Made by a program: the position numbers and the translations under genes. Below are positions 5,528 to 48,413 of a DNA stretch of 64,000 nt, piece after piece (within the stretch, counting starts at the first letter, position 1; the number at the start of each line of letters is the position of its first letter). Origin of the DNA: a virus; the IMG/VR virus record IMGVR_UViG_3300035696_000024, positions 26,209 through 90,208 of that record; one strand, 5' to 3'. The notes beneath the pieces are model-generated. The model was not told the DNA's origin. It worked only from the letters and a program-made list of their open reading frames with translations, and did no database searches.

Positions 5528-6307
5528 ATGTCGGAAGAAAAGTATTTTGACGCTGAAAAAGTAGTTGTCAGAAAAATAGATAAGGCTGTTGCAGAAGAAA
5601 TGATTGTAAAATATCACTATTCTCATAAATGGTCTTTGTGTCAGGTTGCATATGGTGTTTTTTACATTACTGATAAGCAATGCAAATTTTTCAATGCGGT
5701 GGAAGAAAAACTTATCGGTTGTATTGTGTTTGGTCAACCTGTCGGACGTTCTGCGGCTGAATCTGTTTCAAAATTAATAAACGTTTATGAAGTTTTTGAA
5801 CTTACCAGATTGTTTATTCATGATGGATATGGAAAGAATATTGAAAGTTATTCAATAGCAAAATCTTTGGAACTTGTAAGGAGAGATTTTCCACAAATTA
5901 AAGCAATCATTTCCTATGCAGATGGTGAACAGGGTCATAAAGGAACAATATATCAAGCATGTAATTTTTATTACCAAGGAAATTCATCCTTAGCTTTGAT
6001 GCCAAATTATTCTGTTTCCTTGGTGGGTCCGCCGTATCAGTGGATACATTCTAGAACAATTTCATCAACATACGGGTCACATAACGTGGAACATTTAAAG
6101 AAAAAAATAGGTCATACATTTTGGCGGAAAAAGGAGTCTTCAAAACATAGATATGTTTTTTTGTTGGGTAGTAAAACAGAAAGAAGAAAGATACTAAAAA
6201 ACCTTAAGCATCCCTTCGAATCAATCTACCCGAAAGATACAAGTCATACGGATGAAATAGAGGAAATTACGGTGGATACTCCGACAGAAAATCAGTTCTT
6301 TGGGTGA
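5528..6307 (+). CDS. Mom-family GNAT-fold DNA modification protein
   Basis: YHYSH, FELTRLF, ESYSIAKSL, IISYAD..QGHKGTIYQACNF, KHRYVF. Confidence 0.75.
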   Translation: MSEEKYFDAEKVVVRKIDKAVAEEMIVKYHYSHKWSLCQVAYGVFYITDKQCKFFNAVEEKLIGCIVFGQPVGRSAAESVSKLINVYEVFELTRLFIHDGYGKNIESYSIAKSLELVRRDFPQIKAIISYADGEQGHKGTIYQACNFYYQGNSSLALMPNYSVSLVGPPYQWIHSRTISSTYGSHNVEHLKKKIGHTFWRKKESSKHRYVFLLGSKTERRKILKNLKHPFESIYPKDTSHTDEIEEITVDTPTENQFFG

Positions 6308-6328
6308 AATATCCATATTTATAGTAAT

Positions 6329-7903
6329 ATGGAGCACAGTTTATTAATAGACAGAGAAAGAGTAATACAAGGTAGTGGTATTAGTGGAAGAATAATTGTC
6401 GCACTGCGTTTCACAGAATTAGAGGCTACCAGTTTTGAACAGGCCATCGAGAATTACAATAAAACATCACCCAATAAAAATTTGGTGGTCGCATTTATTG
6501 ATTCTCATACAGGTGAAACCATTAAAGGGCCAAAATATGATACTACAACTCAATCTTTGGGTAAATATAACATAAAAAAATTTTTAGAGCCGGGAGTAAA
6601 GCAACAAGCACCAATAGAACCATCACAACACGAACCGAGAGATAGATTTGATGAATGGGGAAAGAAACCAAGATATAGAAAGCAAATTGTAATTAAGAAA
6701 AAATTATTAGGCGGATATTCGATTATTGCTTATGGTGCAGACGGTAAGATAGAAAATAATGGGTTATTACAGTTTATTGTAGATACACCTCGAAAAGCTG
6801 CAGTAACAGCTAATCATTTACATGATAGATACAAGTGGCCTATTGTAGATTTAACCAGAGAAACAATTGCGAAGATGTCAGTATGTAGGTTGTGTGCTGA
6901 TGAATTTAATAACGACGAAGAGTTATTCATTCATTTACACAAAGTTCATCAAGTGCCAGATAATGAAATATTAAATAACGGTTTTTGGGTGAATATAAAT
7001 AAACTCATAAGTAATCATCAATATCTTCGTCAACATTTGCCAAATAAAATAAAACCTATGAATGAAATCAATAAATTCAGAAATATGATCAGAGAATGTA
7101 TCTCTGAAATCAAAAAAGAAAATGACCCAAAGACACGTCTCAAGGAATCTCTTCGTAATGTGGTCAAAGATGTTTTAAGTGAAATGAGCACTCTTACGAC
7201 CAGCGGTAAACCAGACCAAACCAAGGATGAAAAAGAAGCATCGGACAAGCAATATTTTAAAGACCCCAATCCAAGACTTAACAAAACCAATGTCAAACAG
7301 CAAACTGAACTGGACACACTTGTTAAAGGCATTGACCCTTCATGGGAAGCCTATTGGGATGACCATCAACAATTGATAGTCCGAGCGCAAAATCTTTTGT
7401 ACATTCGAATTTGTCAAAGATTTGAAAATAGTTACGATGTGGATGCTATGGTTAAATTAGTTGATAGAGTTCGTGCCATTGCCCTTACATGGGACCAAGT
7501 CAAAGCATTTGTTAAAGCAAATTTCAGTGATTTGAAGAACAAGACCATTCCCGATAAGCAAAGGGAAAAAGCTATCAATAATTACGATGACAAGGAAGTA
7601 ATTAAGAAGGATGCTGGACCGGAAAAGGCCAAAGTTGGTGTCAGATATCAAGACCCAAAACACGGCACAATTAAAGACACCAAGAAAGATGACAAAGACT
7701 ATAATGAACCCCAAACAAAGAGGGATGAGGATATGCCTGACCAACCGATGAAACAGGTCACAGAACCCGGTAAAGACCCTGAATCTAAAAATAAGAACAT
7801 CGAAAAAACGCCCAAGGTCAAACCACCTAAACATAAGAATGACAAGACGTTAAGGGTAAAAGATAAGAAGACTTCCAAATTTGTCTTAAAGAAGAGAGCC
7901 TAA
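6329..7903 (+). CDS. Modular hypothetical protein with C2H2 finger and charged low-complexity tail
   Basis: 524 aa ORF; TATTTATA at 6316-6323; CRLCADEF...LFIHLHKVH; RNMIRECISE and LRNVVKDVLSE motifs. Confidence 0.7.
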   Translation: MEHSLLIDRERVIQGSGISGRIIVALRFTELEATSFEQAIENYNKTSPNKNLVVAFIDSHTGETIKGPKYDTTTQSLGKYNIKKFLEPGVKQQAPIEPSQHEPRDRFDEWGKKPRYRKQIVIKKKLLGGYSIIAYGADGKIENNGLLQFIVDTPRKAAVTANHLHDRYKWPIVDLTRETIAKMSVCRLCADEFNNDEELFIHLHKVHQVPDNEILNNGFWVNINKLISNHQYLRQHLPNKIKPMNEINKFRNMIRECISEIKKENDPKTRLKESLRNVVKDVLSEMSTLTTSGKPDQTKDEKEASDKQYFKDPNPRLNKTNVKQQTELDTLVKGIDPSWEAYWDDHQQLIVRAQNLLYIRICQRFENSYDVDAMVKLVDRVRAIALTWDQVKAFVKANFSDLKNKTIPDKQREKAINNYDDKEVIKKDAGPEKAKVGVRYQDPKHGTIKDTKKDDKDYNEPQTKRDEDMPDQPMKQVTEPGKDPESKNKNIEKTPKVKPPKHKNDKTLRVKDKKTSKFVLKKRA

Positions 7904-7930
7904 TACATACCCCATTTATTGCTTCACAAG

Positions 7931-7957
7931 AAACCGTGCTTTTGCACGGTTTTATTT
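7931..7957 (+). terminator. Rho-independent terminator, possibly bidirectional
   Basis: AAACCGTGC-TTTT-GCACGGTTT hairpin followed by T-rich run, after stop at 7903. Confidence 0.75.
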
Positions 7958-7961
7958 GCGG

Positions 7962-46625: not shown

Positions 46626-46627
46626 AT

Positions 46628-46978
46628 ATGTCCATAGGAACACCATTCAGTCATTGCCCCAGATGTTGGGAACACTATGACGTGTGTAAATGCACGGAAT
46701 CAGAAATAAAAGAACATGAGGAAGATATAAAAAAGATGAAAGAAACAGATAAAACTTTTACAATCAAATGCACCATGAAAGATAGATGGGTTCCTCACTT
46801 CCTTGCCATGTTGAAGTACATGGCTTATCTTGGTAGAATTGGGTCATCGCGTCAGGTAACTTTGTATTCTGATGGAGACGGTGATTTTCATCCAAAATTT
46901 GAATGGGATGAATCATTACCAGCAGATGCTAAACCGATAATAGACAGGGGTGGCGATAGGACTTATGACGCTGGATGA
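46628..46978 (+). CDS. Hypothetical phage protein
   Basis: CPRC..CKC N-terminus; LGRIGSSR...SDGDGDFHPKF. Confidence 0.6.
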   Translation: MSIGTPFSHCPRCWEHYDVCKCTESEIKEHEEDIKKMKETDKTFTIKCTMKDRWVPHFLAMLKYMAYLGRIGSSRQVTLYSDGDGDFHPKFEWDESLPADAKPIIDRGGDRTYDAG

Positions 46979-47144
46979 AGATAATAAATCTGAAAAGTTT
47001 AATTGTCCTTGGTGTGGAGTAGAAAATATTATAAGGCCACCAGTGAGAATAGACTGGTGCAAAATATGTTGGTATTGTAAAAGAATGTTCATACATTGTG
47101 AAGGAAGAATCATGAAACTGGAGCATGACATACATCTAATATGA
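46950..47144 (+). CDS. Small Zn-ribbon protein
   Basis: CPWC...CWYC. Confidence 0.5.
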   Translation: MAIGLMTLDEDNKSEKFNCPWCGVENIIRPPVRIDWCKICWYCKRMFIHCEGRIMKLEHDIHLI

Positions 47145-47626
47145 GTGACAAGATATTCAATTTCGATGACCAAATGAAGATAGGTGATACGGGCGAATCC
47201 GACTTTATCAAAGTTTATGAAAAATTGGAACCAAAGAAAAGTATTTCTGATTTCAAGTTTGATTTTCTTTTAAATAATGGAAAAACCATAGAATTGAAAA
47301 CCGACAGTTACGACATGAGAAAGACACCAAATTTTTTCATGGAACAATTCACGGTATCGGGTAAAAGAAAAATTTTAGGTGGTCCTTGGCGTTCGCAAGA
47401 ACACAAAGTTGATTACTTTGTTTACTATTTTATCAAAAATAAAATTTTCTTTTGGTTTTCACCTGTAGATTTATGTGAATTTTTGGATGAATTCATAAAG
47501 AAAAATAAACTAACGCCAATCTCAATACCCAATAGGGACAAAGACGGTGGATATTATGAAGCCTTGGGGTTTAAGATTCCAAGAGACAGTGTAAGGCCCG
47601 TTCTTCTTAAAGAGCATGAAATTTGA
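47141..47626 (+). CDS. PD-(D/E)XK-type nuclease-like protein
   Basis: GE...FDF...IELKTD...NFFME. Confidence 0.6.
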   Translation: MSDKIFNFDDQMKIGDTGESDFIKVYEKLEPKKSISDFKFDFLLNNGKTIELKTDSYDMRKTPNFFMEQFTVSGKRKILGGPWRSQEHKVDYFVYYFIKNKIFFWFSPVDLCEFLDEFIKKNKLTPISIPNRDKDGGYYEALGFKIPRDSVRPVLLKEHEI

Positions 47627-48413
47627 TTTTACAATCAGAGAAGTAAATAAATATACCGCAGCGGAGTTAGTTCAACAACATCATTATTCCAAAGTAATGC
47701 CGCGACTTACCAAGCATTATCTTGGTGTGTTTATCGGAGACAAAATGGTTGGTGTATTGACACTTGGTTGGGGAACACAACCCATTGCCACTATTCGAAA
47801 ACTCTTTCCATCATTGGCAACCAAGGATTATTATGAAATTGGAAAAATGTGTATGCTCCCCGAAATGCCAAAGAATTCTGAATCACAAATGTTGTCTGCG
47901 GTTATTAAATGGATGAAAATAAATCTACCAAAGAAATTGTTTTTATACACTTGGGCCGATGGAATTGTTGGAAAGTGTGGTTACGTGTACCAATCAGCTA
48001 ATTTCTTGTATGGTGGTTTTATATGGACTGATATTTACATTGGCCCTGATGGTGAAAAAATTCATCCAAGAACTTCACACAATCTATGCGTTGAAAATGC
48101 TAAATTCTGTAACAAGGAGAGAGTTTTTTGGCTGACGCGAGATTTTATGAAAATGAAAGGTATCACTAGAATTAGGGGAAAACAATTCAGATACATTATG
48201 CCCTTATCCAAGGAAGCTAGAAAAATGCTTGACAAATCCACGGTTAAATGGACAATAGATTATCCAAAAGAGGCCGATTTGGAATGGAAAAAACAAGTTG
48301 ATGATGGCTATGAAATTATAAAAAATATGCCAAAAATTGATTTGGGAGTCGTCAATGTAAATAAAAAAAATGTCAATTCTTGTAAGACAGCTAAACATGA
48401 GTTTTTCGGATGA
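47616..48413 (+). CDS. Mom-family GNAT-fold protein
   Basis: HHYSK, VGVLTLGWG, YEIGKMC, NSESQMLS, YTWAD..GKCGYVYQSANF, QFRY. Confidence 0.75.
   Translation: MKFDFTIREVNKYTAAELVQQHHYSKVMPRLTKHYLGVFIGDKMVGVLTLGWGTQPIATIRKLFPSLATKDYYEIGKMCMLPEMPKNSESQMLSAVIKWMKINLPKKLFLYTWADGIVGKCGYVYQSANFLYGGFIWTDIYIGPDGEKIHPRTSHNLCVENAKFCNKERVFWLTRDFMKMKGITRIRGKQFRYIMPLSKEARKMLDKSTVKWTIDYPKEADLEWKKQVDDGYEIIKNMPKIDLGVVNVNKKNVNSCKTAKHEFFG

Follow-up and report, generated by a model that had tools for sequence, protein, structure and literature searches.

Why a single phage should carry five genes for proteins of the Mom and DruA (DUF4338) families, and whether these proteins jointly modify its DNA, is the question raised by the viral DNA whose first lines stand above. 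The stretch analyzed, referred to here as the window, consists of 64,000 nucleotides (bases 26209-90208 of a linear viral contig of 90,208 bp, IMG/VR record IMGVR_UViG_3300035696_000024) and has a G+C content of approximately 35%; all feature coordinates below are window positions. An earlier note on this DNA had regarded the three Mom-like and two DruA-like genes as a candidate multi-enzyme DNA hypermodification system. Our results suggest, with a probability that we estimate at roughly one in two, that the lineage keeps a kit of Mom-superfamily GNATs in which Mom1 and Mom3 are autonomous DNA modifiers, the members acting separately and not in one pathway. What we established directly is the family membership, the residue states, the folds and the synteny of these genes.

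Family assignment and the full-length Moms

The five open reading frames (ORFs) were found where the earlier note had placed them and in the families to which it had assigned them, all well above the Pfam gathering scores (27.1 bits for the Mom family, PF25680, and 27 bits for the DruA/DUF4338 family, PF14236). Mom1 (5528-6307, + strand, 259 residues) matched PF25680 with 149.6 bits over profile positions 2-198 of 202 and Mom3 (47616-48413, + strand, 265 residues) with 182.6 bits over positions 1-195. Mom2, or mini-Mom (36533-37078, − strand, 181 residues), matched positions 9-138 only, with 85 bits. DruA1 (9322-10638, + strand, 438 residues) and DruA2 (11996-12748, + strand, 250 residues) matched PF14236 with 93.4 and 72.8 bits, respectively. 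Apart from these profile searches, which confirmed the family of all five, the PHROGs family phrog_1384 (‘Mom-like DNA modification protein’) matched Mom1, Mom2 and Mom3, and the PADLOC DruA model PDLC00002 matched DruA1 (E 4.1e-22) and DruA2 (E 1.4e-6). All five are open, uninterrupted ORFs, and a six-frame search of the whole contig returned exactly three Mom and two DruA matches, which contain no internal stops.

Residue states were read from alignments of the Moms (A1, and A7 with 24 family members including Mu Mom), of 21 mini-Moms (A3) and of Mom1 with 12 orthologues (A6). The motifs HY, NxES, AD..GH and GxxYQAxN, quoted earlier from the letters alone, are visible in A1. The data support the assignment of the five proteins to one GNAT-fold superfamily, whose sole characterised member, Mu Mom, modifies DNA. 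Superfamily membership, conservation and divergence thus speak for the proposed multi-enzyme hypermodification set; however, the five are not equivalent (Mom2 lacks an insertion and DruA1 the residues typical of Mom, as described below), and no more than two or three seem capable of modifying DNA by themselves.

As described in the available text of Silva et al. (2026, PMC13219725), Mu Mom is a GNAT that takes glycine from Gly-tRNAGly and attaches it to adenine N6 in double-stranded DNA, after which an on-base rearrangement yields carbamoylmethyl-adenine. The active site proposed there comprises H58, Y59, R111, S124, D149, R151 and Y159. Alanine at R111, S124, D149 or R151 led to a large or full loss of activity, and R111K lowered it drastically. 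A helix-turn-helix (HTH)-like insertion at approximately residues 175-209, for which DNA binding was proposed, is required, its deletion abolishing activity. According to the same text, the enzyme is a dimer that needs no partner enzyme, and FemX, L/F-transferase and the toxins TacT and AtaT are cited as its mechanistic analogues.

Mom1 and Mom3 are 26-32% identical to Mu Mom, which by sequence is the nearest solved relative of Mom3 (30% identity; phmmer to PDB 8bv8, E 8.8e-19). Like Mu Mom (PF25680, PDB 8bv8), they have a GNAT fold with an extra helical insertion, the HTH-like region being present in both by alignment, and H58, Y59, S124, D149 and Y159 (Mu numbering). None of the three Moms of the contig departs from H58, Y59, S124 or Y159 (A1, A7). 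When R111 is counted as well, Mom1 has six of the six residues (A1, A7) and Mom3 five, with lysine in place of R111, as in both close Mom3 relatives aligned. As judged from these alignments, Mom1 and Mom3 are credible DNA modifiers.

Since Mom1 and Mom3 are 22% identical to each other and Mom3 is closer (53% identity) to the Moms of unrelated phages, namely Psychrobacter phage Y8A and the Melnitz phages, they are old, separate lineages and not products of a recent duplication. The closest cultured relative of Mom1 is from a Polaribacter phage (38% identity), and its orthologues are 53-88% identical. The divergence of Mom1 and Mom3 makes different specificities plausible. To that extent the idea that divergent paralogues install different or staged modifications is supported; nothing points to its staged half, and only parts of the set travel together.

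DruA2, Mom2 and DruA1

DruA2 forms, by sequence comparison, a bridge between the DruA and Mom families. With hhalign it matched the DruA1 family (E 4.8e-19) and the broad Mom alignment (E 6.5e-8, probability 94.6%), and its C-terminus gave a weak match to phrog_1384 (E 0.002). H40, Y42, R104, N116, S119, Y167 and N171 of DruA2 align to H58, Y59, R111, N121, S124, Y159 and N163 of Mu Mom, respectively; the protein has equivalents of five of the seven proposed Mu active-site residues, with valine at the position of D149. The structural model of DruA2 matched Mu Mom (8bv8) in Foldseek with probability 1.00 and E 8.8e-4, and 8bv8 was also its top match in VIA-align (Z 11.3, root-mean-square deviation (rmsd) 5.0, 177 residues aligned). 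DruA2 is most likely a third nucleic-acid acyltransferase and a Mom-like catalyst. Its family comprised 473 database matches, and tblastn gave no match to it in cultured phages.

The mini-Moms, of which Mom2 is one, form a conserved subfamily of short proteins (172-197 residues), in which 35 columns are invariant across 21 sequences (A3). The equivalents of H, Y, R, S and Y are present in the subfamily, and the HTH-like insertion is missing in all 21. Mom2 itself has five of the six Mu residues (H58, Y59, R111, S124, Y159) together with D149N, and it shares the reading NANE with its two nearest relatives where the other mini-Moms read FADE. Since the insertion is missing and D149 is replaced, Mom2 is unlikely to modify DNA alone; possibly it forms a pair with another Mom or acts on some other acceptor. 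FemX, L/F-transferase, TacT and AtaT, which likewise have a GNAT fold and use or target aminoacyl-tRNA, are models only for what a Mom without the insertion might do.

A frameshift-split gene was ruled out as the origin of Mom2: translation of 36200-37090 (− strand) stops after ...PYPKKIK, with nothing Mom-like downstream in frame (a comparison that did not extend to the 72-residue ORF at 36259-36477), and the idea was also dropped because the short form is a conserved subfamily. In the longer mini-Mom forms of 403, 300 and 317 residues, Pfam detected no domain other than Mom.

The model of DruA1 (predicted local distance difference test score (pLDDT) 88.8) consists of an N-terminal helical region followed by a GNAT core (approximately residues 115-378) with a helical insertion in the same topological place as that of Mom. 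Mu Mom (8bv8_A) was the top match of this model in VIA-align (Z 9.7, rmsd 4.2, 185 residues aligned), and there was no profile similarity between the DruA1 family and Mom. When DruA1 was read through its alignment with DruA2, the Mom catalytic positions were occupied by C, T and T, and a gap lay over the GxxYxAxN motif. Residues particular to the family are conserved, among them a QPxG...GGK stretch that resembles the coenzyme A (CoA)-binding loop of ordinary GNATs. Probably, DruA1 either carries out a chemistry unlike that of Mom, possibly acyl-CoA dependent, or has a non-catalytic role.

When the DruA1 model was compared with BFVD, the best viral matches included uncharacterised proteins of giant viruses (Faunusvirus, E 5.1e-19; Yasminevirus, 3.0e-14; Dasosvirus, 4.1e-9). 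Since these are viruses of eukaryotes, the DruA-type fold extends beyond phages and bacteria.

Linkage among relatives and competing explanations

The contig is a fragment of an uncultured jumbo phage, since the relatives to which DruA1 and Mom2 led are contigs as long as 365,299 bp, and two of these, G014 (365 kb) and G011 (296 kb), are rated 100% complete. CheckV puts the completeness of the contig at 26%, i.e. about a quarter of the genome, and no DNA nearly identical to it was found in the cultured-phage collection searched. The replication module is of the large T4-like type, with a DnaB-like helicase, ribonucleotide reductase, a split family-B DNA polymerase, a clamp loader, an exonuclease and a helicase. 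The Mom and DruA genes are situated among those for helicase, polymerase and clamp loader, a DNA-related context that favours the DNA-modifier reading.

G014 contains three Mom and three DruA genes in the order Mom1, DruA1, DruA2, mini-Mom and Mom3, followed approximately 35 kb further on by a third DruA gene (367 residues). That last position falls beyond the end of our contig, and because the contig represents only about 26% of its genome, the five genes seen here are probably six in the full genome. Among the 13 DruA1-bearing records in which Mom and DruA genes were counted, DruA was present in all 13 and Mom in eight; G001 has two Mom and three DruA genes, and the complete G011 two and one. 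Cultured phages usually have one Mom gene, in contrast with the three found here: with Mom1 as the query, 326 records gave 326 matching places, with Mom3 207 records gave 208, and in a further search 137 records gave 137.

The neighbours of DruA1 were counted in 80 IMG/VR loci; since many of these are truncated, the numbers given are minima. A gene for a 133-residue protein lies directly 5' of DruA1 in 77 loci, and a gp62-like clamp-loader subunit gene lies 3' of it in 75; on this basis DruA1 is a core gene embedded among replication genes, and Mom1, DruA2 and the others are accessory. An RmlD-like gene is found 3' of DruA1 in 20 of the loci.

Several observations weigh against a kit of separately acting enzymes in which Mom1 and Mom3 modify DNA autonomously. 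The activities, donors, target bases and biological roles named in this account are all inferred. Mom3 natively has K111, while R111K drastically lowers the activity of Mu Mom, and R151, which is essential in Mu, is not kept, the position being occupied by glutamate in Mom1, isoleucine in Mom3 and lysine in Mom2 (A1). The confidence of the DruA2 model is moderate (pLDDT 72.4), the match of DruA1 to 8bv8 lies within 1 Z of many ordinary acetyltransferases, and Foldseek comparison of the DruA1 model with the PDB yielded no match below E 0.011, Mom emerging only on re-alignment with VIA-align. The neighbours of mini-Mom are kept in the four closest loci only; a Mom1 orthologue is found near DruA1 in 18 of the 80 loci, and a separate DruA2 orthologue in 11. 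ARAGORN detected no tRNA in the window or the contig, and a comparison of the window with Rfam was negative at E <= 1.

Loss of R151 as a sign of inactivity was rejected, as Mu is alone among the 24 aligned family members in having R at this position (A7); R151 is therefore not family-defining, and the position is perhaps simply variable. E151 is invariant in all 13 rows of A6 and may mark a different substrate of Mom1.

It is conceivable, although we regard it as rather unlikely, that most of the set has targets other than DNA, with DruA1, Mom2 and perhaps DruA2 acylating host or phage proteins, tRNA or aminoacyl-tRNA (as in the case of TacT and AtaT) or an amino sugar of the glycan to which the neighbouring sugar genes would give rise. 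GNATs are versatile enzymes whose substrate is not predictable from the fold, as stated in the available text of PMC13219725, and Mom2 lacks the insertion proposed there to bind DNA and adjoins glycosyltransferase genes both here and in G014. DruA1, devoid of the Mom residues, has protein and polyamine acetyltransferases among its structural neighbours; 49 of the 50 VIA-align rows shown for it are acyl/acetyltransferases or Mu Mom (Z 8.3-9.7), as are most of the listed Foldseek rows. However, four of the ten longer DruA1 homologues scanned carry extra domains (UDG, ParB_N, GIY-YIG and DUF3102, the last of a function not known), and the UDG, ParB_N and GIY-YIG fusions, in three of the ten, are with domains of DNA enzymes and point to DNA. 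Moreover, DruA1 is fixed among replication genes, in both DruA models Mom is the structural match that ranks first and aligns over the most residues, and the sole characterised family member acts on DNA.

A decidedly unlikely alternative is that the five or six proteins form one staged pathway or complex that builds a single hypermodification on the same base, to which the products of the sugar genes might add. The gene order shared with the complete relative G014, the overlap of DruA2 with the gene for an RmlD-like reductase and the position of Mom2 at the head of a strand block containing glycosyltransferases would fit such a pathway, and since Mu Mom is described as a dimer (available text of PMC13219725), mixed dimers are conceivable. 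On the other hand, the members occur apart, as illustrated by the composition of G011, by the five of the 13 DruA1-bearing records without Mom and by the 18 and 11 of 80 loci mentioned above; because only parts of the set co-occur, no staged or cooperative pathway is indicated. Mini-Mom is unlinked to sugar genes beyond the four closest loci, and Mu Mom, in the text just cited, needs no partner enzyme. Neither the contig nor G014 contains a thymidylate-synthase-family (ThyA-type) hydroxymethylase that would provide an acceptor base for sugars, so that glycosylation of hydroxymethyl bases by the sugar genes is unsupported.

Finally, it is very unlikely that some copies, in particular Mom2 (D149N) and DruA1, are decaying or non-catalytic: D149A greatly reduces and deletion of the insertion abolishes Mu Mom activity in the available text of PMC13219725, Mom2 having N149 and no insertion and DruA1 lacking the Mom catalytic residues, but both proteins are under clear purifying selection, as seen in the 35 invariant columns of mini-Mom and in the best 120 of 1865 matches of DruA1, which are 54-89% identical and have invariant residues of their own, and none of the ORFs is interrupted.

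Expression, neighbouring genes and proposed roles

The earlier note had placed the genes under two promoter classes, and this proposal applies to part of the set. A putative sigma-70-type promoter of perfect consensus precedes Mom1 at 5491-5519 (+ strand; TTGACA 5491-5496, a 17-nt spacer, TATAAT 5514-5519) and ends 8 nt before the ATG at 5528, and the element TATTTATG is located at 11981-11988, 15 nt 5' of DruA2. Mom2 and Mom3 have no promoter of their own; their starts overlap the upstream genes, of 446 and 161 residues, respectively, by 11 nt each. Of the 110 ORFs, 14 have TATTTAT in the 60 nt preceding them, as compared with a rough by-hand chance expectation of approximately 2.5; the whole contig has 48 copies, where the similarly rough expectation is approximately 69. 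Any role of TATTTAT as a late promoter is putative. The consensus early-type promoter of Mom1 differs from the situation in Mu, where mom is expressed late, and no Com-type translational control was seen here. Just 3' of the 524-residue gene that follows Mom1, a G+C-rich hairpin with a T run (7935-7957, + strand; AACCGTGC-TTTT-GCACGGTT-TTATTT) looks like an intrinsic terminator that would close the Mom1 transcription unit.

Mom1 ends in ...NQFFG and Mom3 in ...HEFFG, a tail that is absent from Mu Mom. A C-terminal FF(G/S/E) is found in all 13 rows of A6, where the preceding residues are variable, and in both Mom3 orthologues examined. The FF tail may be a docking peptide, e.g. for a sliding clamp; we take it to resemble the clamp-binding tails of the T4 and RB69 polymerases. 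A candidate for the clamp is the 250-residue protein encoded at 49199-49951 (+ strand), directly 5' of the clamp loader (50161-51144). It has no Pfam or PHROG match, lies near the PCNA_N and gp45 clamp clusters in a language-model atlas (score 0.94-0.95, a lead only) and is kept in 13 of 17 related records. Prediction of a complex between this protein (A5) and residues 215-259 of Mom1 (A6) scored 0.26 against a mark of 0.32. C-termini containing FF were also noted in the C-terminal half of the polymerase (44862-46199, ...KFFDFGE) and in DruA1 (...DLFFNDVGR).

A DarG-like macrodomain protein is encoded 146 nt 3' of Mom3 (48559-49125, + strand; Pfam Macro, E 4.5e-9; PADLOC DarG, E 1.9e-34 over residues 18-129, the macrodomain only). 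A possible role of this protein is to counter DarT-type DNA ADP-ribosylation, and its presence next to Mom3 fits a neighbourhood concerned with DNA adducts. The 133-residue protein encoded directly 5' of DruA1 (8174-8575, + strand) has no Pfam or PHROG match and is a candidate functional partner of DruA1. The RmlD-like NAD(P)-dependent sugar reductase (12724-13623, + strand; PF04321, E 1.9e-23) overlaps the end of DruA2 by 25 nt. The sugar-gene block next to Mom2 (13613-36247, − strand) includes GT1/GT4 and at least four GT2 glycosyltransferases, UDP-galactopyranose mutase, UDP-glucose dehydrogenase and a sugar C-methyltransferase, and also a B12-binding radical S-adenosylmethionine enzyme, a zinc alcohol dehydrogenase, a thiamine pyrophosphate-dependent E1-like enzyme and the dUTPase-domain protein described next.

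The nucleotide-pool genes reported earlier are real. They encode a dATP/dGTP diphosphohydrolase N-terminal-domain (dGTP_diPhyd_N) protein between DruA1 and DruA2 (11541-11954, + strand; PF18909, E 3.1e-23), a protein with a dUTPase domain match (33573-34253) and two nucleoside 2-deoxyribosyltransferase-like proteins (51407-51946 and 52329-52679). Since the chemistry of Mom is aminoacyl-tRNA dependent (available text of PMC13219725), a post-replicative reaction of this type does not need them, and the dGTP-diphosphohydrolase-domain gene is not a conserved partner of DruA1, being near it in one of the 80 loci. The window also encodes the large subunit of ribonucleotide reductase, with a C-terminal TSCPD domain (2049-4712, + strand), and the family-B DNA polymerase (42574-46199, + strand) in two ORFs of 427 and 445 residues, between which lie a 132-residue gene and an HNH/endonuclease VII-like gene.

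The lack of a DNA methylase, also reported earlier, holds for the window and the whole contig as regards the three families tried (PF01555, PF02086 and PF00145, none of which gave a match). It does not hold for the lineage: G014 carries two PF01555 (N6/N4-methylase) genes and a weak PF02086 (Dam-like) match, and the lack is therefore a property of the fragment. As to tRNAs, G014 has 56 matches covering most amino acids, including tRNA-Gly, and G011 has 31, and the G014 set could serve Mom-type enzymes. Two tRNA-Gly genes of G014 lie approximately 2.6 kb from its third DruA gene on the opposite strand, which is a weak link. A private tRNA-Gly mimic beside a DruA gene was rejected, as ARAGORN found none in the window or contig and Rfam nothing tRNA-like at E <= 10 in 7800-12100. 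The tRNAs of G014 (L174:1066-1140 and other loci) include one with anticodon CUA, labelled Pyl by ARAGORN, which would read the amber stop codon.

Mom-type DNA modification as a kind is known, and DUF4338 is already called a GNAT domain in print, in the available text of a comparative study (PMC10853773). DruA1, DruA2 and the third copy of G014 match the Pfam and PADLOC models of DruA, a component of the type I Druantia defence system. Unlike that system, the genes described here are phage-borne and unaccompanied by a DruE-type helicase (MZB/DUF1998, PF09369; no match in the contig or G014, DruB-D not having been searched for), and DruA2 is much shorter and closer to Mom. DruA1 homologues with 25-32% identity are present in T4-like phages from the sea (Mosig and HTVC008M of Pelagibacter; cyanophages such as S-SSM7, S-PRM1 and S-SCSM2R). 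DruA-like proteins of cyanophages are noted in passing in the available texts of 10.1101/2025.08.05.668817, where the homologues are printed as DruA-like, and PMC12801897, where one is called Mom-like. In contrast with the present lineage, 30 of the 31 matching phages have a single DruA1-like place (HTVC008M has two), these phages are not reported to carry three Mom genes, and the DruA2 type is unmatched in cultured phages. In the literature searched we found no function assigned to DruA, including that of Druantia, and no report of a conserved kit of several Mom and DruA paralogues, of a Mom subfamily without the insertion, of a short DruA bridging DruA and Mom, or of a division of DruA proteins into one that looks catalytic and one that is unlike Mom.

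The homology of Mom1 and Mom3 to Mu Mom suggests that they would be autonomous post-replicative enzymes, each of which would transfer an aminoacyl group from a charged tRNA to an exocyclic amine on a base of the double-stranded phage DNA. The kit would thereby probably give at least two separate DNA marks, Mom1 and Mom3 differing either in the mark or in site specificity and blocking the nucleases of the host; such protection of the phage genome is the role expected for Mu Mom as well. Mom1 would probably be made early, from its host-type promoter, and Mom3 would be co-transcribed with replication genes. DruA2 would probably be the third catalyst, Mom2 would be a partner or act on another acceptor, and DruA1 would differ in its chemistry or lack catalysis. 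A more far-reaching version, which we consider unlikely, is that each of up to six paralogues installs a different aminoacyl mark (differing in amino acid, base or context), using the phage's own, nearly complete tRNA set (judged from the 56 matches of G014), and that the DruA family is generally DNA-marking. If this were true, virion DNA would carry several tRNA-derived hypermodifications at once, DruA marking would be the missing self-marking step of type I Druantia, and the orphan DruA copies of this phage would be mimics of that mark.

To our knowledge, no enzyme other than Mom is known to modify DNA by means of charged tRNA, and the glycine/adenine reaction of Mu is the sole one elucidated so far (2026). 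Should DNA be the target of the two full-length Moms alone, the kit would add modestly to what is known of phage anti-restriction. The lineage nevertheless places natural variants side by side, namely two divergent full-length Moms, a Mom without the insertion, a bridging short DruA and a core DruA without the Mom residues. These variants could reveal whether the family makes other DNA adducts, and also the function of DruA, whose gene comes first in type I Druantia and is so far without an explanation.

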